39,836 nt of DNA from Kayfunavirus AN24P4, in sequence record OZ035739.1. One strand, 5' to 3'. The position numbers and the translations under genes are program-made. The notes under the pieces were generated by a model. It was not told the DNA's origin. It searched no databases and worked only from the letters and a program-made list of their open reading frames with translations. Shown here piece by piece: positions 4,809-19,201 of this stretch (positions are counted from its first letter, which is position 1; every line of letters begins with the position of its first letter).

Positions 4809-5141
4809 ATGGAACGTAACGCTAACGCATACTATGAGCTGCTGGCTGCAACCGTTGAAGCATTTAACGAGCGTATTCAGTACGACGAAATAGCTGAAGG
4901 AGATGACTACCACGATGCGCTGCATGAAGTCGTAGACGGTCAGGTTCCGCACTATTACCACGAGATTTTCACGGTGATGGCTGCTGATGGTATTGACCAT
5001 GAGTTTGAAGACTCTGGGCTGATGCCTGATACCAAGGATGTGACGCGTATACTGCAAGCTCGCATCTATGAGGCGCTTTATAACGACGTGGCTGATATCT
5101 TGGATGTAGTCTGGTTTGAGGCTGAAGAGGGAGACGAGTGA
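4809..5141 (+). CDS. ocr: Ocr DNA-mimic anti-restriction protein (T7 gp0.3-like)
   Basis: 110-aa acidic ORF; collinear with T7 Ocr ([63 protein letters not shown]); acidic C-terminal tail. Confidence 0.9.
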
Positions 5142-6346: not shown

Positions 6347-9028
6347 ATGAGCGTCATCTCTATTGACAAACACGACTTCTCTGATGTGTCTAACGCCATT
6401 GAGCCGTTTAACCTGCTGGCTGACCACTACGGGCAAGACCTTGCAGTCAAACAGCTTCAGCTTGAGCACGAGGCATACACTGAAGGCGAGCGACGTTTCA
6501 TCAAAAACCTTGAGCGACAGACTGAGCGCGGGGAACTGGCAGACAATCAGGTAGCCCAGCCTTTGATGCAGACTCTGGTCCCTAAGATTGCGCAAGCCGT
6601 CAGGGAGTGGCATGAAGGTCCAGACGGGAAGCTGTCAACCTCTCGTCCGAGCGTATCGTTCACCATGTTAAGCACTGAAGAGAAGGCCGTCAAGGACCGC
6701 TCTCTTCGCATCTCCTGCGAGTCTGCTGCGGTTATCATACTGAAGGTCATCCTCTCCAAGCTGGTCAAGCCTGAAGGTATACCGATTACACCGATGGCCT
6801 CCGCGATAGGTCGCACACTTGAGGATGAAATCCGATTCGGTCGCATTCGTGACAAGGAGAAGGAGCACTTCAAGAAGGCGATAGCTGATAACCTGAACAA
6901 GAGAGCCGGGGCATCATACAAGAAAGCCTACATGCAAGCGGTCGAGACATCCATGCTGGAGCAAGGCCAACTAGAAGATGCGTGGGGAACTTGGAGTCCG
7001 ACCGAGGCTGTCCACGTTGGAATCAAGATGCTGGAGATTGTCATCCAGTCAACACAACTGGTCGAGCTTAAGCGTTACGGTGCTGGCAATGCAGCGGCTG
7101 ACGTTGAGATGGTCCACCTGTCAGACTTCTGGGTCAAGAAGATGGCACAACGCGGCTTCAGCCTTGCGGGTATCGCTCCAGTCTACCAACCTTGCGTAGT
7201 TCCACCTAAGCCGTGGACTGGTGTCGTAGGCGGGGGGTACTGGGCCAAAGGTCGCAGACCATTACCACTGATTCGCTTAGGGTCTAAGTCTGCGGTGGAA
7301 CGTTACGAAGACGTGTATATGCCTGAAGTCTATGACGCTGTTAACATCATCCAGAATACACCTTGGAAAGTGAACAAGAAGGTTCTGGACGTGGTGAACA
7401 TGGTCGAGAAGTTGAACAACACGCCTATTGATGACATCCCTCAGATGGAGCCACTGAAGCCTGAAGAATATGCGGGTGAGACTGAAGAGGAACTCAAGGC
7501 GTGGAAGAAAGCGGCTGCTGGTATCTATCGCCGCGAGAAGGCCAGACAGTCACGCAGGTTGTCGCTGAGCTTTATCGTTAACCAAGCGAACAAGTTCTCT
7601 CAGTTCAAGGCCATCTGGTTCCCGTATAACATGGACTGGCGCGGTCGCGTCTACGCTGTGCCGATGTTCAACCCTCAGGGTAACGACATGCAAAAGGGTC
7701 TCCTGACTCTGGCAGTCGGTAAGCCTATTGGTGCTGATGGTTTCAAATGGCTGAAGGTCCACGGGGCAAACTGTGCGGGTGTCGATAAAGTCACCTTCGA
7801 GGAGCGCATCAAGTGGGTGGAAGACAACCACGACAACATCATGGCTGCTGCTAAGGCACCGATGGATAGCATTGAGTGGTGGGGCAAGTTAGACTCTCCT
7901 TTCTGCTTCCTTGCGTTCTGCTTCGAGTATGCTGGCGTGATGCACCACGGATTGTCTTACTCCTGCTCGCTGCCGATAGCTTTCGATGGGTCCTGCTCTG
8001 GGATTCAGCACTTCAGCGCTATGCTTCGTGACCACATCGGTGGACATGCAGTAAACCTAACGCCATCCGGTAAGGTCCAAGACATCTACCGCATCGTGTC
8101 TGACCGCATTGAGGAGGAGCTTAAAGTCCTGCTGGTTAACGGCACGGATAACGAGATGGTAACTCACGAGGACAAGAAAACTGGTGAGATTACCGAGCGT
8201 CTCAAGCTGGGGACACGAGAGCTGGCCCGGCAGTGGCTGACTTACGGTATGTCACGCAAGGTTACTAAGCGCTCAGTCATGACTCTGGCCTATGGGTCGA
8301 AAGAGTACGGCTTTGCAGACCAAGTTTACGAGGACATCGTGATGCCAGCGATTGACTCAGGGTCTGGCGCTATGTTCACTGAACCAAGCCAAGCGTCTCG
8401 CTTCATGGCTAAGATGATTTGGGAAGCTGTGAGTGTGACCGTAGTTGCTGCAGTTGACGCGATGAAGTGGCTTCAAGGTGCTGCCAAGCTGCTGGCGGCT
8501 GAAGTGAAGGACAAGAAGACTGGAGAAATCCTGAAGCCTTGCCTTCCGGTACACTGGGTCACACCTGATGGGTTCCCGGTCTGGCAGGAATACCGCAAGA
8601 AGGATACCACTCGTCTGAACCTGATGTTCTTAGGGTCCTTCAACCTTCAGCCTACCGTCAACAAAGGCACGAAGAAGGAGTTGGATAAGCACAAGCAGGA
8701 GTCAGGAATTAGCCCGAACTTCGTCCACTCACAAGATGGTAGCCATCTCCGCAAGACTGTAGTCCACACTCACCGCAAGTATGGCGTGATGTCATTCGCA
8801 GTGATTCACGATAGCTTCGGGACCATCCCGGCTGACGCTGAGTATCTGTTCCGTGGTGTCCGTGAGACGATGGTCGAGACCTACCGCGATAACGATGTGC
8901 TGCTTGACTTCTACGAGCAGTTTGAATACCAACTTCATGAGAGCCAGCGCGACAAGTTGCCTGAGCTTCCGAAGAAAGGTAAACTGAATATTGAGGACAT
9001 TCTATCTTCAGACTTTGCATTCGCTTAA
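6347..9028 (+). CDS. single-subunit DNA-dependent RNA polymerase (T7 gp1-like)
   Basis: 893-aa ORF collinear with T7 RNAP over its whole length (FGRIRD, PWTG..GGGYWA, FPYNMDWRGRVYA, GIQHFSAMLRD, HDSFGT, C-terminal SDFAFA). Confidence 0.97.
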   Translation: MSVISIDKHDFSDVSNAIEPFNLLADHYGQDLAVKQLQLEHEAYTEGERRFIKNLERQTERGELADNQVAQPLMQTLVPKIAQAVREWHEGPDGKLSTSRPSVSFTMLSTEEKAVKDRSLRISCESAAVIILKVILSKLVKPEGIPITPMASAIGRTLEDEIRFGRIRDKEKEHFKKAIADNLNKRAGASYKKAYMQAVETSMLEQGQLEDAWGTWSPTEAVHVGIKMLEIVIQSTQLVELKRYGAGNAAADVEMVHLSDFWVKKMAQRGFSLAGIAPVYQPCVVPPKPWTGVVGGGYWAKGRRPLPLIRLGSKSAVERYEDVYMPEVYDAVNIIQNTPWKVNKKVLDVVNMVEKLNNTPIDDIPQMEPLKPEEYAGETEEELKAWKKAAAGIYRREKARQSRRLSLSFIVNQANKFSQFKAIWFPYNMDWRGRVYAVPMFNPQGNDMQKGLLTLAVGKPIGADGFKWLKVHGANCAGVDKVTFEERIKWVEDNHDNIMAAAKAPMDSIEWWGKLDSPFCFLAFCFEYAGVMHHGLSYSCSLPIAFDGSCSGIQHFSAMLRDHIGGHAVNLTPSGKVQDIYRIVSDRIEEELKVLLVNGTDNEMVTHEDKKTGEITERLKLGTRELARQWLTYGMSRKVTKRSVMTLAYGSKEYGFADQVYEDIVMPAIDSGSGAMFTEPSQASRFMAKMIWEAVSVTVVAAVDAMKWLQGAAKLLAAEVKDKKTGEILKPCLPVHWVTPDGFPVWQEYRKKDTTRLNLMFLGSFNLQPTVNKGTKKELDKHKQESGISPNFVHSQDGSHLRKTVVHTHRKYGVMSFAVIHDSFGTIPADAEYLFRGVRETMVETYRDNDVLLDFYEQFEYQLHESQRDKLPELPKKGKLNIEDILSSDFAFA

Positions 9029-9600: not shown

Positions 9601-9858
9601 ATGGGCCGACTTTATAGTGGCAACCTCAACGCTTTCAGAGCAGCGTGTAACAGGCTTTATCAGTTAGACTTCTGCGTGATACAGCAGGACTGGTACGACG
9701 CGCATCTTCGGAAAGAGTGCATGAGACTTCAAGTCGAGGACCGAGCTGGTAACATCTTCGCGCTTAAGACCTTCGCACACCGCGATGAAGACGTACTGTA
9801 CAACACTGCAACAGGCTTCATTAACTGTCTCGCTAACCAACTCGACACATGGAGATAA
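9601..9858 (+). CDS. gp1.2-like dGTPase (Dgt) inhibitor
   Basis: 85-aa ORF strongly similar to T7 gp1.2 (MGRLYSGNL.AF.AA.N.L.QLD..VI..DWYDA...K.C.RL..EDR.GN). Confidence 0.85.
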   Translation: MGRLYSGNLNAFRAACNRLYQLDFCVIQQDWYDAHLRKECMRLQVEDRAGNIFALKTFAHRDEDVLYNTATGFINCLANQLDTWR

Positions 9859-9862
9859 CACA

Positions 9863-10948
9863 ATGACAACTATTAAAACTAACCCGCACCGCTCTGTAGA
9901 TTACTCTGAGTCTGGCGTTAAGAAGGCTTTGGAAGCTGCCGGGTCTCTCGAAGCTGAAGTGAAGTACGATGGTGTCCGGTTGAACCTTCCGGTCTTCCCT
10001 ACTGGTGAGACTCAATGGTTGAGCCGTGAGTCTAAACCTCTTCCAGCCTTGGAGTGGATGAACTCTGAGTTAGGTAATGCGTGGACCCAAGCTGACTGGC
10101 GATGGTTCCTGCGTCAAGCTGGCTACGAAGGCGTGGGCTTGATGATTGATGGCGAGGTAATGGTCAAAGGCGTGGACTTCAATACCTCCTCAGGTCTCAT
10201 CCGAACGAAGTGGCTCAAGCCTAACAACGAGGAGTTCGCTGAATACTATTCGCCGGGCCGTGGAAAGAAGCTCCCGTTCTGGGGAGCCAGGTCACGACTT
10301 CAGGTTGTGGTATATGGCGTTGTCGATATGACAACCATAGCAGACCCGAAAGCAGAAGGTCCTATCCATAGCGTAACCCGCCTGAAGGCTGAAGCTATCG
10401 TCCCTCTCCTCCAGAAATACTTCCCGGAAATCGACTGGGTTCTGTCTGAGTCACACACGGTCTATGACCTTGAGTCGCTCAACTCCCTGTACGAACAGAA
10501 GCGTCTGGAAGGACATGAGGGTCTGGTAGTCAAGGACCCACTGGGTAAGTACAAGCGTGGCAAGAAGTCTGGCATGTGGAAAATGAAGCCTGAGGAGACC
10601 ATCGACGGGACCGTGTGTGGCCTCGTGTGGGGGACTCCTGGTAAGGCTAACGAAGGTAAGGTCATCGGCTTTGAGGTTCTACTGGAGGATGGCATGGTGG
10701 TCAACGCCTGTGGTCTGACTGAAGAACAGAAGGACGAGTTTACGGCTAAGGTCAAGGAGGACACGCTTGCTGCGGTTGGCATCTTTGCGCCGTACGGCAT
10801 TGGTGGTAACGAACCTTGCTTCGATAACCCATACGAAGGCTGGCAGTGTGAAGTCCTCTTCATGGAGAGGTTCCCTGATGGCTCCCTTCGTCACCCCAGC
10901 TTCAAGTGCTGGCGTGGAACCGAAGACAACCCAACGGTGAAGTCATGA
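9863..10948 (+). CDS. ATP-dependent DNA ligase (T7 gp1.3-like)
   Basis: Start at internal ATG 9863 (RBS ggaga); IKTNP, KYDGVR (adenylation Lys motif), EGHEGLVVKDP, WKMKPE, GSLRHPSF collinear with T7 ligase. Confidence 0.92.
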   Translation: MTTIKTNPHRSVDYSESGVKKALEAAGSLEAEVKYDGVRLNLPVFPTGETQWLSRESKPLPALEWMNSELGNAWTQADWRWFLRQAGYEGVGLMIDGEVMVKGVDFNTSSGLIRTKWLKPNNEEFAEYYSPGRGKKLPFWGARSRLQVVVYGVVDMTTIADPKAEGPIHSVTRLKAEAIVPLLQKYFPEIDWVLSESHTVYDLESLNSLYEQKRLEGHEGLVVKDPLGKYKRGKKSGMWKMKPEETIDGTVCGLVWGTPGKANEGKVIGFEVLLEDGMVVNACGLTEEQKDEFTAKVKEDTLAAVGIFAPYGIGGNEPCFDNPYEGWQCEVLFMERFPDGSLRHPSFKCWRGTEDNPTVKS

Positions 10949-11124
10949 GTACACAACTTTATATCAACATAGCAAGTGGTCAACTCTACGCTGTGGTAAA
11001 TGGCGAGCTGTGGTATCGTAAACTCAAGAAGTGGGCCAAGTCCTACTACGATGAAGAGACAATATCAACCATGAGTCATCGCTACCGTAAGGCTGCTAAG
11101 GTGAACAACTTTAAGATGCGTTAA
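10945..11124 (+). CDS. small protein (59 aa), gene 1.4/1.5 position
   Basis: ATG overlaps ligase stop (ATGA); assignment by position only. Confidence 0.45.
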   Translation: MSTQLYINIASGQLYAVVNGELWYRKLKKWAKSYYDEETISTMSHRYRKAAKVNNFKMR

Positions 11125-11128
11125 CGTC

Positions 11129-11167
11129 AACCCAGTGGTCTTAGGACTGCTGGGTTTCTTTGCTTCT
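11129..11167 (+). terminator. putative intrinsic terminator for host RNAP (TE-like)
   Basis: aacccagtggtc-ttag-gactgctgggtt: 12-bp stem with two G-U pairs and a tetraloop, followed by tctttgcttct. Confidence 0.45.
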
Positions 11168-11232: not shown

Positions 11233-11487
11233 ATGTCTAAAAACTTAATGTTCAACCGATTTACTCGAAGCTTCCACCTGTCGCATAGCCCATTCAGCTT
11301 CCATAAAGCTAATCAACCATTACCCCGCTTTGGTAAGACAGTGGCTCTGTCTCCAGCAGTTCATGCGCTAGTCACCCGCAAGTCTATGCTGAAGGCTATG
11401 GATAAAGAACAAGTTGATGTGCCTGTGGTCATTACAAAATGGCCTCGCATTAAGCTGGCACTTCTGGTAATTAAGGAGGCGCTCTGA
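11233..11487 (+). CDS. gp1.6-like protein
   Basis: 84-aa ORF; resembles T7 gp1.6 as far as I recall (LSPAVHALVTR, C-terminal LLVIKEAL); my recollection of that protein is imperfect. Confidence 0.55.
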   Translation: MSKNLMFNRFTRSFHLSHSPFSFHKANQPLPRFGKTVALSPAVHALVTRKSMLKAMDKEQVDVPVVITKWPRIKLALLVIKEAL

Positions 11488-11819
11488 TGACATACTGTGA
11501 TAGCACCACATACTGTGAAGCGTGTAATGGTGACGACCGCTTCCCGCACGTTGGTAAACTTGTAGGTAACAAACTACAAGAAATTGATGACGTCCGCAAG
11601 CCGTCCCACTATCAGGTCTTTGATAGCGTGGAATCCATTGAGATTATCGCACGGTCAATGACTGTGAGTGAGTTCCGTGGGTTCTGCATGGGTAACGTCC
11701 TGAAGTATCGACTCCGGGCTGGTAAGAAGTCCGAACTGGCTACTATGGAGAAGGACCTGAACAAAGCATCCTTCTATCAGAAGCTGTTCGACTTGCATAA
11801 AGGTAAGTGCTATGCTTAA
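11487..11819 (+). CDS. gp1.7-like nucleotide kinase (C-terminal-type domain)
   Basis: 110 aa; KPSHYQVFDSVESIEIIARSMTVSEFRGFCMGNVLKYRLRAGKKSELA..EKDL.KA.FY..LF..HKGKCYA closely matches the T7 gp1.7 C-terminal half. Confidence 0.7.
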   Translation: MTYCDSTTYCEACNGDDRFPHVGKLVGNKLQEIDDVRKPSHYQVFDSVESIEIIARSMTVSEFRGFCMGNVLKYRLRAGKKSELATMEKDLNKASFYQKLFDLHKGKCYA

Positions 11820-11899: not shown

Positions 11900-11998
11900 A
11901 TGGAAAAGCCGAGTGAGTGGTGCGAGCGTAAATTTGAGGAGACAGGTAACGTCGATTACCTTCAGCTCTACAACTTATGGAAGGAGCGTGGTCTATGA
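11900..11998 (+). CDS. gp1.8-like small protein (32 aa)
   Basis: [11 protein letters not shown]...[12 protein letters not shown] resembles T7 gp1.8; stop overlaps the next gene start. Confidence 0.45.
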
Positions 11999-12153
11999 CT
12001 GACGTAGAGAAGAAGTACATCGTGGAGCTTGAGGGTCGCATTCAGTCCTTCGAGGTTCCGGTGTACGCAAAGTCTCTTGAAGAGGCTACCCTGAAGTCCC
12101 AAGAGTATGAGGACGCTGGGTTTGTGGTCGGACGGATTCGCCCTGAGACCTAA
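11995..12153 (+). CDS. gp2-like host RNA polymerase inhibitor
   Basis: 52 aa; [14 protein letters not shown] and C-terminal GF.V.R.RP resemble T7 gp2. Confidence 0.6.
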
Positions 12154-12171
12154 ACTATCACTGTAGGACAG
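12149..12171 (+). promoter_or_regulatory. phage RNAP promoter variant (phi2.5-like)
   Basis: cctaaactatcactGtaGGAcag; one substitution at about -3 relative to the consensus. Confidence 0.55.
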
Positions 12172-12210: not shown

Positions 12211-12909
12211 ATGGCTAAAGAGCAACTGAAGACTTTCACCACTCCGGTAGCTGGTATCGTTGAGCCTTACGCATGGCTGAACAAAGCAGACACCAAGTTT
12301 AATGAGCGTGGTGAGCATAAGGTTAACCTGACTTTCAGTCTGGATGACCCGAAGGTCCGTAAGATGATTGATGTCTTACAGAAGATTCACGACGATGCGT
12401 ATGCGAAAGCACTCGCAGACCACGAGAAGAACCCACCTCAGGTTCAGCGTGGCAAGAAGCCTATCGAGCCGCGCGAAGGCGATATGCCGTGGATTGAGAA
12501 TGGGGACGGTACTGTTACCATGAAGTTTAAATGCTTTGCGTCTTACCTGAAAGACGGCAAGTCAGAGCCTATCGTATTACGGTTCTACGACACTGATGCT
12601 AAGTTAATCCGTGACGTCCCGAATATTGGCGCTGGCTCCAAACTGAAGGTCAAGTTCAAAGTCCTGCCGTTCAAGTGGAACGCTGCGACTGGTGCAAGCG
12701 TTAAGCTCCAGCTTGAGTCCTGCCTTCTGGTAGAACTGAAGGAGTGGAAAGGTGATGGTGCTGGTGGTGATGGTGGCTGGGGTGACGATGAAGACCTCGG
12801 TACTGGGTACAAAGCGTCAACCGATGGTGACTTCGGGTCTGATGACTTCGGTGACGATGGTTCCGAAGGTGGTGACGACTCCAGCTCTGGTGGCGATTAC
12901 GACTTCTAA
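12211..12909 (+). CDS. single-stranded DNA-binding protein (T7 gp2.5-like)
   Basis: 232 aa; OB-fold region plus Gly/Asp-rich acidic C-terminal tail ending in F (GGDYDF), the gp2.5 hallmark. Confidence 0.92.
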   Translation: MAKEQLKTFTTPVAGIVEPYAWLNKADTKFNERGEHKVNLTFSLDDPKVRKMIDVLQKIHDDAYAKALADHEKNPPQVQRGKKPIEPREGDMPWIENGDGTVTMKFKCFASYLKDGKSEPIVLRFYDTDAKLIRDVPNIGAGSKLKVKFKVLPFKWNAATGASVKLQLESCLLVELKEWKGDGAGGDGGWGDDEDLGTGYKASTDGDFGSDDFGDDGSEGGDDSSSGGDYDF

Positions 12910-13364
12910 TGGCCCAATGGTCTGCAAAACGGGGGCACTCTGTGGGTGCCTACCGCTCTGGACTTGAAGCCAAGAACCAGCAGTGGCTGGAACAGAACGG
13001 CGTCAAAGCGGAGTACGAAAGCCATTATATCAACTATGTGATTCCGGCTTCCGACCACAAGTACACACCAGATTTTATCCTTCCAAACGGTATCATCGTG
13101 GAGACCAAAGGTATCTTCGATAGTGATGACCGTAAGAAGCACCTTCTGGTACGAGAACAGCACCCAGAGTTAGACATCCGGTTCGTGTTCTCAAGTTCAC
13201 GCTCCAAGCTATACAAAGGGTCCCCGACCACGTATGGCGCATGGTGCGAAAAGAACGGCTTTAAGTTTGCCGACAAGTTTATCCCTGTTGAGTGGCTGCG
13301 AGAGGCGACTGTACGTCTGCCTTCAGGTATACTCATTCCCAAGAAGAAAGGAGTTAAGAAATGA
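12909..13364 (+). CDS. endonuclease I, Holliday-junction resolvase (T7 gp3-like)
   Basis: 151 aa; YVIPAS.H.YTPDF.LPNGI.VETKG...SDDRKKHLL.REQHPELDIR.VFSSSR.KLYKGSPT.YG collinear with T7 gp3. Confidence 0.92.
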   Translation: MAQWSAKRGHSVGAYRSGLEAKNQQWLEQNGVKAEYESHYINYVIPASDHKYTPDFILPNGIIVETKGIFDSDDRKKHLLVREQHPELDIRFVFSSSRSKLYKGSPTTYGAWCEKNGFKFADKFIPVEWLREATVRLPSGILIPKKKGVKK

Positions 13365-13852
13365 GCCAGAAGTTTAAACTGTTAGTAGATATATGTGGTT
13401 GGCCTCGTGGGACTATCGTTACCAAGTGTAAGAAGGGCCCAGCTCCGTTGCCTGGCCTTACCCTAGTTGAGTGCCAGACTCCAGGCAAATACAAACATGG
13501 GCCTAACGGCTTCAATACTCAGCCTAAGGGCATGTGGGGAGCATGGATTGCTGACAGATATATTGAGGAAATCAAACCAGAAGAGGAACTCACTGGTGTA
13601 CAGACCACTCAAGTCCTTCCAGCTTCGAGCGTACCTCCTGTGACAGTGAAACGCGAAGTCCTGACAATCGACAAGATTGGGGTGGGCCAGACGTTCATCG
13701 TCCACGGAAAGCCTGACGAAGTTTACGTGAAGATCAGCAACTCACACGTCTTCAACCATAAGCGTCTCCAGATGCATACCACGGACGCACAACGCTTCAC
13801 CCAGCATCTGAATCTAGTGGTCGTAGAATTGGTGGTGTACAATGGTAAGTAA
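13361..13852 (+). CDS. hypothetical protein (163 aa) inserted between endonuclease I and lysozyme genes
   Basis: ORF overlapping gene 3 stop (ATGA) and overlapping gene 3.5 start; no counterpart in canonical T7 gene order; no recognisable motifs. Confidence 0.65.
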   Translation: MSQKFKLLVDICGWPRGTIVTKCKKGPAPLPGLTLVECQTPGKYKHGPNGFNTQPKGMWGAWIADRYIEEIKPEEELTGVQTTQVLPASSVPPVTVKREVLTIDKIGVGQTFIVHGKPDEVYVKISNSHVFNHKRLQMHTTDAQRFTQHLNLVVVELVVYNGK

Positions 13853-14300
13853 GGTACAGTTCAAACCGCGCAGCCGTACAGACGCAATCTTCGTCCACTG
13901 TAGCGCAACCAAGCCAGAGATGGACATCGGGGTAGAGACCATCCGTATGTGGCACAAGCAGCAAGGCTGGCTGGACGTAGGCTACCACTTTATCATCAAG
14001 CGCGACGGTACTGTGGAAGAGGGTCGCCCGGTCAATGTCGTAGGGTCACACGTTAAGGACTGGAACTCACGGTCTGTAGGCGTCTGCCTTGTAGGTGGAA
14101 TTGACGCTAAGGGCAAGTTTGAAGCTAACTTCACTCCGGCCCAGATGAACTCACTGCGCAACAAGCTGGCTGACCTGAAGGTCCTGTATCCTCAGGCAGA
14201 AATCAAAGCACACCATGACGTAGCACCAAAGGCGTGTCCAAGTTTCGACTTGCAACGCTGGCTGTCTACCAATGAACTGGTAACTTCCGACCACGGTTAA
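13842..14300 (+). CDS. lysozyme / N-acetylmuramoyl-L-alanine amidase, RNAP inhibitor (T7 gp3.5-like)
   Basis: 152 aa; DAIFVHCSATKP, WLDVGYHFIIKRDGTVE, SIGVCLVGGID.KGKF.ANFTPAQM, HH.VAPKACPSFDL nearly identical in pattern to T7 gp3.5. Confidence 0.93.
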   Translation: MVSKVQFKPRSRTDAIFVHCSATKPEMDIGVETIRMWHKQQGWLDVGYHFIIKRDGTVEEGRPVNVVGSHVKDWNSRSVGVCLVGGIDAKGKFEANFTPAQMNSLRNKLADLKVLYPQAEIKAHHDVAPKACPSFDLQRWLSTNELVTSDHG

Positions 14301-14323: not shown

Positions 14324-14539
14324 ATGATTAAACTTATCGAATTTCTTGGTCGTCTGGTGGTGCGTGGTTATCGTCGTGCTGCGGTTATGGAACGAAAGGT
14401 AGCAGAGAAGACTGCCGATGGTGCGGCGGATGCTGCTGCTCTGGCTGACAAGCTGACCATCGCGTCACTGGAAGCTGGCATGAAGGCGCGTCAGGCTGAC
14501 ACCAAAGCCGACCAGTTGTCTCAGTTCTTCAAAGCCTAA
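14324..14539 (+). CDS. small conserved T7-group protein (71 aa), N-terminal hydrophobic helix and Ala/Lys-rich C-terminus
   Basis: RBS aaaggaga; MIKLIEFLGRLVV then coiled-coil-like AEKTADGAADAAALADKL, ends QLSQFFKA; resembles a small T7 gene-4-region protein but exact ortholog uncertain. Confidence 0.55.
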   Translation: MIKLIEFLGRLVVRGYRRAAVMERKVAEKTADGAADAAALADKLTIASLEAGMKARQADTKADQLSQFFKA

Positions 14540-14557
14540 ACTATCACCTTAGGGATG
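14535..14557 (+). promoter_or_regulatory. degenerate phage promoter-like sequence upstream of gene 4
   Basis: cctaaactatcacCTtaGGGatg; two substitutions at about -4/-3; probably weak. Confidence 0.35.
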
Positions 14558-14604: not shown

Positions 14605-16308
<1,704 letters not shown>

Positions 16309-16526: not shown

Positions 16527-16570
16527 CTAGACTCAAGGTCATTCACATCGAGTGGCCTTTATGATTAGAC
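16527..16570 (+). promoter_or_regulatory. RNase III-type processing hairpin (R4.7-like), copy 3
   Basis: ctagactcaaggtcattcacatcgagtggcctttatgattagac; same arms as copies at 297 and 9341. Confidence 0.5.
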
Positions 16571-16587
16571 TAAACGGAGGATTAACC

Positions 16588-18603
16588 ATGTTTGACCTTA
16601 AGAGTATCTGGGGTTCTGACATAGAGACCAACGGTCTCCTTGATACAGTCTCCCAGTTTCACTGTGGGGTCCTGATTAACGCCGAGTCGAATGAGACCCT
16701 TAAGTACGGGGTAGCTCCGATGGTCGGTATCGTCGGTGGCTTCAAAGAGTATGTTCATAAAGTGGAAGAGATTGCCGCATCGCCTGATGGTATGCTGGTA
16801 TTCCACAACGGTATCAACTATGACGTCCCGGCTATTGACAAGCTGAAGCGTCTGTACTTTGGGAAACGATTTAACTTCCCGAAACACAAGATGATTGATA
16901 CCTTGGTGCTGGGTCGCTTGATGTATCCAAACATTAAGTTCTCAGACATGGGCGCAGTGAAATCTGGTCGTCTGCCACCTAAGATGATGGGACGCCAGTC
17001 TCTTGAGGCTTGGGGCTATCGTCTCGGTGAGATGAAAGGTGAGTACAAACACGATTACGTTGCCAAGTGCAAGGCTGAAGGTATCGAATATAAGGCTGGG
17101 GACGAATGGTTGTTCCCGTCTCAGGAGATGCTGGACTATAACGTTCAAGACGTTGTGGTCACACTGGCGTTGTTCAAGAAGTTCCTGACTGACAAGTATT
17201 ACTTCCAGTCTGAACAGTTCGCTTTCGACCAGATTTATGCGTTGCGTCTGGAACATGACGCTGCTTGGACCTGTGCGAAGATGGAGCGTAACGGCTATCC
17301 GATGAACACCGAGATGGTTGAAGGCTTATATCGTGAACTCACCGTCAAACGTGCGGAGCTGCTGGACAAGCTGCGTTCGACTTTCGGCAGCTGGTATGCA
17401 CCAAAGGGAGGCAAGGAGTTCTTCAGGCACCCACGGACAGGTAAGGACCTTCCGAAGTATCCGCGAGTCGTGTATCCTAAGGTCGGGTCAGTATTCAAGA
17501 AGCCGAAGAACAAAGCTCAACGCTTAGGTCTGGAGCCTTGCGAGTTCGACTCACGAGACACGATGGAGGGAGCACCGTTCACACCTATCACTTACGTTGA
17601 GTTCAATCCGGGGAGCGGAGACCACTTAGCGAAAGTCTTGATGGAGCGTGGCTGGGAACCTGTGGACTTCACTGACACCGGGAAACCTGTAGTCGATGAC
17701 GAGACGTTAGAACACGTTAAGTTGCCAGACGAAGAGGCTCAGGCTTGCGTAGAGCTGGTCCGTGAGTATTTGGTAGTCCAGAAGCGCATCGGTCAGGCTG
17801 CTGAAGGTAAGAACGCATGGTTGAAACTTGTAGGCCCAGACGGACGTATGCACGGTTCAATCAACCCTTGTGGTGCAGTAACAGGACGTGCGACCCATAG
17901 CTCACCAAACATGGCTCAGGTTCCTGCTAACGGTGCTCCGTATGGTGAGACTTGCCGTGGTGCTTTCGGTGCAGCGTGGAACAAGAAGGACGGTGAGCCA
18001 GACCCTTGGATTCAAGTAGGCGTGGATGCTTCAGGTCTTGAGCTTCGTTGTCTGGGGAACCGAGCGGCTCCGTTTGATGGTGGAGACTATGCGAAGACTG
18101 TGGTCGAAGGGGACATCCACTGGGCCAACGCAGTAAACGCTGGGTTAGCACCTAACGTCCCACGCGATAAGTCGAACCACGACCATGAGGCTTTCCGCAA
18201 CAACGCCAAGACGTTCATCTATGCGTTCCTGTATGGCGCAGGGGCCGCTAAGATTGGACTTATAGTCGGCGGTGGTAAGAAGGAAGGTTCAGCTCTCATG
18301 AAGAAATTCATTGAGGGTACACCAGCCATCAAGGACCTCAGGGAAGCTGTGAGTAATACGTTAATATCAGACTCTAAGTGGGTGGACGGTGAGAACATCG
18401 TCAAGTGGAAACGCCGCTGGCTGAAAGGTCTAGATGGTAGACGTATCCACATCCGGTCGCCACACTCAGCACTTAACGCTCTACTTCAGGGTGATGGTGC
18501 GGTAGTCTGTAAGCACTGGATTGTCGAGACCGAGCGTATGCTGGAAGCCGAAGGATATGTCCACGGCTGGGATGGAGACTTTGCGTACATGGCATGGGTG
18601 CAT
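16588..18603 (+). CDS. DNA polymerase (T7 gp5-like), exon 1
   Basis: Start at ATG 16588 after ggagg; collinear with T7 gp5 (SDIE.N.LL, FHNG..YDVPA, KSGRLP, NP.GAVTGRATH, DASGLELRC, KTFIYAFLYGAG, DGDFAYMAWVH) but the frame ends at TAA directly after ...AWVH, 51 codons short of the T7 C-terminus. Confidence 0.9.
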
Positions 18604-19201
18604 TAACATCATGGTGCACATTAAATCTGGTGAACTCGGTGAACTCCTAATGGGACAATACCGAGCCAAGCCATAGGGAGGATGTATGAGAGGCAAGAAG
18701 TTAATTCTTGAGGCCACTGAGACTGGCTGCATAATCCCTACGTCACATAAATTGAATCAGGATGGATACTTCCGAAAGAGGACTAACGGTGTCCTTGAGA
18801 TGTATCATAGAACTGTATGGATTAAAGCTAATGGTCCAATACCTGAAGGTTTCGAAGTAGACCACAAGTGTCGGAATAGAGCTTGTTGCAACGTCGAACA
18901 TCTACAAGTATTAGACCGGGACTCACACTTAGTAAAGACCAACCAAGAGCGATACGCTGCTAGGAAGCTAGAAGCACGAGACTACTGGGTAGATACTGGG
19001 TGTACTGGAACGAAGTTAGCCGAAATATTCAATGTGTCGTTCTCAGCCGCCTGTGGGTGGATTAGGGAGTGGAAGGCGTAGAGACTATCCGAAAGGAGTA
19101 GGGCCGTGGGTGAGATTCCCACGTAACCCGAAGCGCCAGACAGTCACCTCAAAGACTGATGATATAGTCCGACACTTCCAGTAATGGGAGAATACAGAAA
19201 G
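18604..19201 (+). mobile_element. intervening sequence in the DNA polymerase gene, probably a self-splicing group I intron carrying an HNH endonuclease ORF
   Basis: About 598 nt between in-frame exon 1 end (...GTG CAT) and exon 2 start (GAT GAG...); last exon-1 base is T (U) and last intervening base is G, as at group I splice sites; contains an independent ORF with its own RBS; AT-rich. Confidence 0.7.
18686..19081 (+). CDS. HNH homing endonuclease (intron-encoded)
   Basis: 131-aa ORF with RBS gggagg; HNH-type motif (EVDHKCRNRACCNVEHLQ); lies entirely inside the intervening sequence in a different frame from the polymerase. Confidence 0.8.
   Translation: MRGKKLILEATETGCIIPTSHKLNQDGYFRKRTNGVLEMYHRTVWIKANGPIPEGFEVDHKCRNRACCNVEHLQVLDRDSHLVKTNQERYAARKLEARDYWVDTGCTGTKLAEIFNVSFSAACGWIREWKA

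Follow-up and report, generated by a model that had tools for sequence, protein, structure and literature searches.

Bacteriophage T7 makes a series of small class II host-interference proteins, namely gp2, gp5.5, gp5.7, gp5.9, gp4.5 and gp1.2. Here we examine gp3.2, a protein of the K1F-like phages that is comparable to these as a small, apparently non-enzymatic middle-class product encoded among DNA-metabolism genes, but that has no homology to any of them. The gene studied, gene 3.2 of Kayfunavirus AN24P4, occupies positions 13361–13852 on the forward strand of a 39,836-nucleotide stretch of DNA (sequence record OZ035739.1; the whole stretch is referred to as the window). It begins with ATG, encodes 163 amino acids (18.2 kDa, isoelectric point (pI) 9.3) and lies between gene 3, encoding endonuclease I, and gene 3.5, encoding the amidase/lysozyme. 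T7 offers no orthologue of established function: on its map gene 3 (10257–10706) abuts gene 3.5 (10706–11161), with no gene 3.2 counterpart.

The closest described relatives are the gp3.2 proteins of phages K1F and EcoDS1, which are products of the same gene. The AN24P4 protein is 87% identical to that of EcoDS1 and aligns with that of K1F over 87% of its length at 75% identity; in both relatives the gene likewise lies between genes 3 and 3.5 and overlaps each of them, and the differences are allelic only, falling mostly in the loops of the N-terminal domain. The two available K1F records disagree at this gene, with NC_007456.1 (9708–10112) matching just amino acids 1–141 and AM084414.1 (9706–10179) encoding an intact protein of 157 amino acids, so that one of the two probably contains a frameshift or a sequencing error. 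More distant are the 74–75-amino-acid gp3.2 proteins of Cronobacter phage Dev2 and Citrobacter phages SH1–SH3 and allied phages (phrog_15211). These are homologous to amino acids 94–163 of the AN24P4 protein, retain its invariant motif and stand at the same locus, but lack the N-terminal module and the proline-rich linker and form a distinct clade of the C-terminal domain (IPVGYAF compared with IGVGQTF).

As a sequence feature gp3.2 is thus already known, catalogued as a conserved hypothetical protein of K1F-like phages. The open reading frame (ORF) carries the annotation ‘gp3.2’ in K1F (AM084414) and EcoDS1 and ‘hypothetical protein’ in other records. The texts searched, among which the K1F genome paper was not included, contained no functional statement on gp3.2 and listed it in a genome-annotation table only. 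Gene 3.2 goes unmentioned in the BASEL paper, although a Kayfunavirus is among its phages, and neither the gp3.2 motif nor the phage names occur in the supplementary text searched from a large phage accessory-gene screen. To our knowledge the protein is unstudied, although K1F-like phages serve as platforms for therapy and engineering. The present analysis adds a predicted two-barrel fold, an organization in which a constant core is joined to swappable modules, and a tenfold contrast in evolutionary rate between the two parts; we know of no record of such a constant-core and swappable-module design for the T7 proteins named above.

AlphaFold models of gp3.2 contain two SH3-like β-barrels joined by a linker. 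The N-terminal barrel, which we call the type A module, spans amino acids 1–72 (positions 13361–13576, forward strand, as are all features of the gene given below), the linker spans amino acids 73–93 (13577–13639), and the C-terminal barrel, the domain that defines the family, spans amino acids 94–163 (13640–13849). When amino acids 84–163 were predicted again from an alignment enriched in divergent branches, the model reached a predicted local distance difference test score of 79, with about 90 in the core, and a β-β-β-β-short helix-β topology. The models are five-stranded barrels that superpose on solved SH3 or SH3-like domains, the nearest folds being spectrin/Src-type SH3, FeoA and the C-terminal SH3-like domain of DtxR/IdeR, with ribosomal protein L2 and domain I of EF-P also listed among the structural relatives. 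Foldseek against viral models (BFVD) returned the family itself and otherwise only weak matches to unannotated small phage proteins.

Sequence-based searches were uninformative as to fold. No Pfam or NCBIfam family matched even at E values up to 10, so gp3.2 belongs to no curated SH3, SH3b, FeoA, KOW or Tudor family; PADLOC gave no match, profile searches of the PDB gave no reproducible sequence match, and no catalytic motif was found in any of these four resources. The original prediction for this ORF, made from the nucleotide letters alone, had seen no recognizable catalytic or structural motif, which is borne out by sequence searches and is superseded, on the structural side, by the two predicted barrels. 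The protein has no transmembrane segment (maximum 19-residue hydropathy 0.80), and each barrel has a pI of about 9.5, with that of the C-terminal domain ranging from 8.4 to 10.2 across branches. From the models and composition, gp3.2 is predicted to be a soluble, basic protein of two barrels.

The C-terminal domain is the constant part. Family alignments define a signature across amino acids 109–150 of the AN24P4 protein, G109..F112...Y122...S126-N-S-H-x-F-N132....Q137-M-H-T-T141...R145-F146....L150, at the centre of which is an invariant polar motif (S126-N-S-H-V-F-N ... Q137-M-H-T-T ... R145-F146; 13736–13798) that is the same in all branches and is kept even in the branch from Providencia phages, where overall identity is 25–35%. 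Ten invariant polar residues fall within about 20 positions on two adjacent strands. Ser, Asn, His, Gln and Thr make up most of this patch, in which R145 is the sole invariant basic residue. The domain stands alone as a 74-amino-acid protein in many relatives, and such C-domain-only proteins (74–76 amino acids) occupy 14 of the 26 loci inspected.

The linker has two parts of different character. The first is acidic and variable and is the site at which extra modules are inserted in relatives; the second is a conserved proline-rich sequence, QVLPASSVPPV, for which positions 13610–13639 are given for amino acids 84–93. In proteins that have both an N-terminal module of type A, B, C or E and a C-terminal domain, this sequence is conserved like the C-terminal domain itself, and it is absent from the C-domain-only forms. 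It could be a docking peptide for one of the two SH3-like barrels or a recombination joint.

The N-terminal half, by contrast with this constant domain, is exchanged between unrelated modules. Among 220 phage records with the C-terminal domain, the type A module (GWPxGTIVTKC...GMWGAW), present in the window, K1F and EcoDS1, occurs in 54. Type B, found in phages of Salmonella Typhi and Paratyphi, accounts for 21 records, type C, found in several coliphages, for 27, and type D, found in Citrobacter phage CR8, for 4; the remaining records have C-domain-only forms or other modules. At least three further types, represented by the proteins P0124, P0129 and the P0135 group, bring the total to at least seven unrelated types. 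In searches with tblastn, types B, C and D each gave one match site per record, directly after endonuclease I. The modules can also be stacked: metagenomic gp3.2 proteins of 220–227 amino acids (P0090, P0107 and P0110) carry three modules, with a type C or type B module between type A and the C-terminal domain. Pfam matches none of the N-terminal modules, and none of them forms a separate PHROG family. We tried to derive a function for gp3.2 from these other modules or from neighbouring genes and abandoned the attempt, as the modules are without Pfam or PHROG assignment and the one HNH endonuclease gene found beside gene 3.2, in Salmonella phage STP-SP3, is uninformative.

Within type A, a scaffold is retained while the loops evolve fast. 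The scaffold comprises GWPxGTIVTxC, LVE, KHG and QPxGMWGAW, and about 35 of its residues are invariant across 120 cluster representatives; in the alignment of gp3.2, W14, P15, W59 and W62 are conserved together with the PASSVPP of the linker, which may be compared with canonical SH3 domains, whose aromatic groove (ALYDY, WW and P..Y positions) binds proline-rich (PxxP) peptides. Variability clusters at amino acids 8–12 (13382–13396), 28–33, 43, 48–51 and 64–67 (13550–13561), which in the model are mostly loops between strands. The most variable of these, by column entropy and by codon changes on the tree, is the loop at amino acids 28–33 (13442–13459). The module is not always kept intact. In P0122 the N-terminal domain is frameshifted and in P0123 it is largely deleted, with the C-terminal domain intact in both, which suggests that the module is dispensable under some conditions. 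The N-terminal domain is also frameshifted, deleted or truncated in P0131, P0132 and P0134.

An origin of the type A module by internal duplication of the C-terminal domain was considered and set aside, as hhalign gives no signal between them. Modules of types C and G show a weak 14–16-residue ‘LxVGxxYxV’ match to the first hairpin of the C-terminal domain (probability 28–34%, P ~5 × 10−4), a hint that the C-terminal barrel may have given rise, by ancient duplication and divergence, to some of the N-terminal modules.

The two halves evolve at very different rates. Changes were counted on a neighbour-joining tree of 21 distinct type A coding sequences, with codon states assigned by parsimony; a metagenome scan for further type A DNA sequences added six loci only. 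On this tree the ratio of nonsynonymous to synonymous substitution rates (dN/dS, or ω) is 0.48 for the N-terminal domain, 0.21 for the linker and 0.10 for the C-terminal domain. In seven phylogenetically independent pairs of close relatives, in which saturation is largely avoided, the N-terminal domain has accumulated 64 nonsynonymous and 18 synonymous changes (ω 0.99), compared with 22 nonsynonymous and 74 synonymous changes in the linker and C-terminal domain together (ω 0.10; Fisher p = 1 × 10−13). The variable loop sites reach column entropies of up to 3.5 bits and 10–25 nonsynonymous changes per codon on the 21-sequence tree.

The same pattern is visible at the shortest distance available. 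Between the window and its nearest relative, Kayfunavirus AN17P1, five of the six nucleotide differences in gene 3.2 are nonsynonymous and all of these fall in the N-terminal domain (C12Y, G26D, G32T and I68L), compared with 2 nonsynonymous among 10 differences in the flanking 3.5 kb. Two residues of the AN24P4 protein are rare among its relatives: G26 (13436–13438), at a position that is D in 118 of 120, and I68 (13562–13564), at one that is L in 117 of 121. The N-terminal half of gp3.2 evolves like a host-conflict gene. At several codons of the module dN exceeds the gene-wide dS by a factor of 2–3, but these sites were picked for their variability, local dS is raised at them too, and recombination and saturation lie outside the model. 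Site-wise positive selection in the module is accordingly not claimed, the pooled ratio being 1.38 on gene-wide dS but 0.81 on local dS.

That gene 3.2 is a real protein-coding gene is shown by several observations. An open frame of 163 codons has a chance of about 4 × 10−4 per start, and the reading frame is intact in nearly all of the 254 homologues found. We compared proportions of synonymous differences (pS) and the ratio of nonsynonymous to synonymous proportions (pN/pS) across 26 loci, comprising the window, 22 of 23 IMG/VR loci and 3 GenBank loci. The last 70 codons of gene 3.2 have a pS of 0.49 and a pN/pS of 0.23, and the core 46 codons have a pN/pS of 0.19, with pS at 0.47–0.49 across the C-domain comparisons. 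The corresponding values are pS 0.37 and pN/pS 0.17 for gene 3 and pS 0.44 and pN/pS 0.17 for the amidase gene. Synonymous sites of gene 3.2 have therefore diverged like those of its neighbours while the protein has stayed constant, so that what is conserved is the protein, not its DNA or RNA. K1F-like phages have in gene 3.2 a genuine class II gene on which purifying selection acts through the protein. Its C-terminal domain, present nearly throughout the genus and under strong constraint, has the behaviour of a core gene.

A constraint on DNA or RNA, such as a promoter, an RNA element or an overlapping gene, was considered for the conservation of the C-terminal half and is ruled out by a pS (0.47–0.49) equal to that of the neighbours. 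A consensus scan found no phage promoter within gene 3.2, a sigma-70-like match at 13640–13668 is at chance level (3 found, 2.9 expected), and Rfam has no match in the region.

The family is narrow in distribution and fixed in place. The protein matches phrog_16385 (‘unknown function’) over its full length (amino acids 1–163, E = 6.5 × 10−91), and amino acids 94–163 match phrog_15211 (E = 2.4 × 10−40). Matches to gp3.2 in tblastn are limited to Kayfunavirus-like records, and when 1.84 billion representative proteins were searched exhaustively with HMMER profiles, just 16 clusters were returned, of which the members inspected were all short gp3.2-type proteins or fragments, none with another recognizable domain; no cellular homologue was found. 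By these searches the family appears to be confined to Kayfunavirus and close relatives in the Studiervirinae, among them Caroctavirus CR8 and the Providencia phages. Within that range it is close to universal. The 1.4-kb stretch at 12900–14300 is 99.4% identical to AN17P1 and 89–96% identical to many K1F-like coliphages, and the C-terminal domain is found by tblastn in 220 phage records, compared with 224 records that share the surrounding DNA. One of the matching records, MT350292.1 (‘Enterococcus phage EFA-1’, UNVERIFIED_ORG), is a typical Kayfunavirus with the order 3 / 3.2 / 3.5, and the Gram-positive host given for it is doubtful.

The position between endonuclease I and the amidase was found in the window, EcoDS1, K1F, CR8, SH3, STP-SP3, PSTCR2 and 23 IMG/VR loci. 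In every locus examined gp3.2 directly follows endonuclease I, including in the most distant, Providencia phage PSTCR2, where the homologue overlaps endonuclease I by 4 nucleotides and two other genes stand before the endolysin. Salmonella phages of the STP-SP3 type carry the gene of an HNH homing endonuclease between genes 3.2 and 3.5 (locus positions 1787–2236 in STP-SP3; PF13392, E = 1 × 10−14). The constant genomic linkage of gp3.2 is to gene 3. In phage JSS1 an annotated HNH gene lies just upstream of gene 3 (locus positions 1–168), and homing endonucleases appear to use the region around genes 3 and 3.5 as a landing zone.

In AN24P4, where genes 3 and 3.5 are likewise on the forward strand, gene 3 (12909–13364; phrog_945, E = 2.5 × 10−62) ends within the start of gene 3.2, the TGA stop at 13362–13364 interlocking with the ATG at 13361–13363 to give ‘ATGA’. 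An AGGAG ribosome-binding site, read off the sequence, lies at 13349–13353, 7 nucleotides before this ATG. At the other end, gene 3.5 (13842–14300; phrog_822, E = 1.8 × 10−80) overlaps gene 3.2 by 11 nucleotides (13842–13852), with the amidase ATG at 13842, the TAA stop of gene 3.2 at 13850–13852 and the amidase ribosome-binding site, GGTGGTG at 13831–13837, inside gene 3.2. Because its reading frame overlaps both neighbours, gene 3.2 is probably translationally coupled to each.

A scan with the phage promoter consensus gave 11 matches, with 0.05 expected by chance. One of them, AACTATCACTGTAGG at 12153–12167 on the forward strand, is the core of phi2.5, a promoter for the phage RNA polymerase and the counterpart of EcoDS1 phi2.5, at the head of the operon; another, at 14539–14553 on the same strand, is the core of phi4, the counterpart of the EcoDS1 promoter before gene 4, at its end. 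No consensus match was found between phi2.5 (12153) and phi4 (14539). Because promoter cores lie only at these two positions, gene 3.2 is assigned to a class II operon 2.5-3-3.2-3.5-3.7, and it is predicted to be transcribed from phi2.5 together with the genes for the single-stranded DNA-binding protein (SSB), endonuclease I and the amidase.

These results bear on most of what the original prediction had said of the locus. It described a 163-amino-acid ORF at 13361–13852 with its ATG overlapping the gene 3 stop and its 3′ end overlapping the lysozyme start, flanked by endonuclease I and lysozyme genes, in the middle-class region and in contrast to a T7 order in which gene 3.5 directly follows gene 3; all of the sequence details hold, and the PHROG matches, the T7 map and the phi2.5 operon agree with the rest. 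It had called the gene unassigned, which it is not, being gp3.2 in K1F and EcoDS1 and PHROG 16385. Its description of the gene as inserted is right with respect to the T7 map and wrong within the genus. The survey across T7-like genomes that it had proposed finds gene 3.2 absent from T7 and nearly fixed in K1F-like phages, with about 220 of 224 related records carrying it; it belongs to the standard gene order of the genus and is not an insertion peculiar to this phage.

PHROG scans of the other large ORFs in the window identify a complete genome of the T7 group, in circular permutation with respect to the T7 map, beginning in the lysis and packaging genes with the early region following. They place an Rz-like spanin at 542–1177, the terminase large subunit at 1167–2936, an ocr-like gene at 4809–5141, RNA polymerase at 6347–9028, ligase at 9785–10948, a nucleotide kinase at 11487–11819, gp2 at 11977–12153, SSB at 12211–12909, primase/helicase at 14608–16308 and DNA polymerase at 16552–18606. 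After the amidase gene, an ORF of 71 amino acids (14324–14539; gene 3.7-like) matches phrog_1950 (unknown function, E = 8 × 10−26) and, weakly and under the Pfam cut-off, DUF5471; it too is uncharacterized and lies in the same operon as gene 3.2.

Taken as a whole, we tentatively favour, while rating it somewhat short of probable, a reading in which gp3.2 works at the phage–host interface as a binding or adaptor protein and not as an enzyme, with its core activity in the C-terminal barrel and its specificity tuned by the N-terminal module. Because SH3-like barrels are binding modules, gp3.2 would act by binding and not by catalysis. The invariant, surface-type Ser, Asn, His, Gln, Thr and Arg residues of the core point to one conserved ligand or partner, and the constant barrel would make a conserved contact with a conserved component of the phage or the host. 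The unrelated N-terminal modules with their hypervariable loops point instead to a changing target, and the exchangeable module would add specificity for a fast-changing host factor, either a defence protein or another strain-variable protein. On this proposal gp3.2 would be an accessory host-interference or adaptor protein. A more specific version, that the family embodies an undescribed design in which an SH3-like anchor, engaging a conserved machine of the phage or host by way of the invariant SNSH/QMHTT/RF patch, carries cassette-like recognition barrels, hypervariable in their loops, that are exchanged between phages and sometimes stacked two deep, so as to retarget the protein to strain-specific host factors such as defence proteins, is in our estimate doubtful.

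The original prediction had likewise proposed an accessory or anti-host protein. An accessory character would be in keeping with the N-terminal half, which evolves like a host-conflict gene and whose modules are variable, swapped or absent, but does not fit the C-terminal domain, which is near-universal, constrained and core-like. The anti-host or anti-defence role is a candidate one, and the homology to a housekeeping gene that could have spoken against it was not found, T7 having no orthologue of established function.

Several points weigh against the adaptor proposal. The SH3-like fold is too generic for a function to be assigned from it, and gp3.2 has no recorded partner, ligand or phenotype. 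A C-terminal domain that is near-universal and constrained like its essential neighbours fits a core role in replication, maturation or lysis at least equally well. An ω of about 1 in the N-terminal module could equally reflect relaxed constraint on a dispensable appendage, as P0122 and P0123 would suggest; in the seven close pairs the pooled value does not depart from neutrality (binomial test, p = 0.6), and the site-wise excess vanishes once local dS is used. Both barrels are basic, which also suits nucleic-acid binding, and the barrel fold of the modules other than type A is presumed from their sequences.

The main rival takes up the last of these properties. Here gp3.2 would be a nucleic-acid-binding accessory factor, a small basic barrel comparable to Sso7d, KOW, ribosomal protein L2 or Tudor domains that aids replication, recombination or concatemer processing together with SSB and endonuclease I. 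The high pI of both domains, held across the branches of the C-terminal domain, is as expected, as is the location, always next to endonuclease I in the SSB operon even where the amidase is separated; near-universal presence and an ω of 0.10 are likewise what a core function would produce. The surface itself fits less well, as R145 is the only invariant basic residue in a patch made up mainly of the other polar residues named above, and T7, T3 and other Studiervirinae lack gene 3.2 yet manage the same DNA transactions. Swapped, fast-evolving modules are also hard to square with DNA, an invariant partner. A distance-correlation test for co-evolution of gp3.2 with endonuclease I gave no special relationship with gene 3; its correlations track physical linkage (C-domain/amidase greater than C-domain/gene 3) and do not speak to the question. 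We regard this explanation as possible, though on balance unlikely.

The overlap of gene 3.2 with the amidase start, and the placement of the amidase ribosome-binding site within it, invite the further explanation of a lysis or lysozyme factor, in which the barrels would form a cell-wall-binding subunit, comparable to the SH3b domains of endolysins, or a modulator of gp3.5 as amidase or as RNA polymerase inhibitor. Bacterial SH3-type domains are common wall-binding modules, which counts in its favour. The linkage is nevertheless broken by the HNH gene in STP-SP3 and by two genes in PSTCR2, and gp3.2 has no Pfam SH3b match. Enterobacterial hosts share one peptidoglycan type, which leaves the swapping of N-terminal modules unexplained, and T7 lysozyme works without such a partner. 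A role of this kind seems improbable.

Less probable again is an immune-signal sponge or small enzyme, in which the His/Ser/Thr/Asn/Arg patch of the C-terminal barrel would bind or cleave a nucleotide-derived second messenger, in the manner of the anti-Thoeris sponge Tad2. The density of invariant polar residues on two adjacent strands would suit such a site, and the stand-alone 74-amino-acid form is typical of sponges in size. Yet gp3.2 has no sequence similarity to Tad2 and neither a match to its family hidden Markov model nor a specific structural match: Tad2 ranks 51st, behind generic barrels, and no Pfam family, DUF2829 included, appears even at E values up to 10. None of the invariant residues is acidic or metal-binding, and the variable N-terminal modules are left without a role.

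A degenerate thiol hydrolase of the PLAAT/LRAT-NlpC/P60 type is very improbable. A single-sequence phmmer search aligned amino acids 58–131 with residues 23–93 of HRAS-like suppressor 2 (4dpz_X, E = 0.0018), but the match is gone when family profiles are used, and the alignment crosses the N-terminal module, the variable linker and half of the C-terminal domain, parts that are not inherited together. The catalytic histidine positions correspond to M58 and E70 and the C-terminal domain has no cysteine, so that the Cys-His-His triad is missing; we take the similarity to PLAAT/HRASLS proteins as chance.

That gene 3.2 is a spurious or decaying ORF is scarcely credible, for although it has no annotated function, an N-terminal ω near 1 in close relatives and occasional N-terminal frameshifts, it has a strong ribosome-binding site, overlaps at both ends, a frame intact in nearly all homologues, an invariant N-terminal scaffold and a C-terminal domain with ω 0.10 at normal synonymous divergence, for which this explanation is refuted.

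The unusually clear division between a constrained barrel and a swapped one that evolves at a neutral-like rate makes gp3.2 a testable candidate for an interface of phage–host conflict in a small, tractable genome. Its constant domain may lead to a conserved target with which T7 either deals in another way or does not deal.

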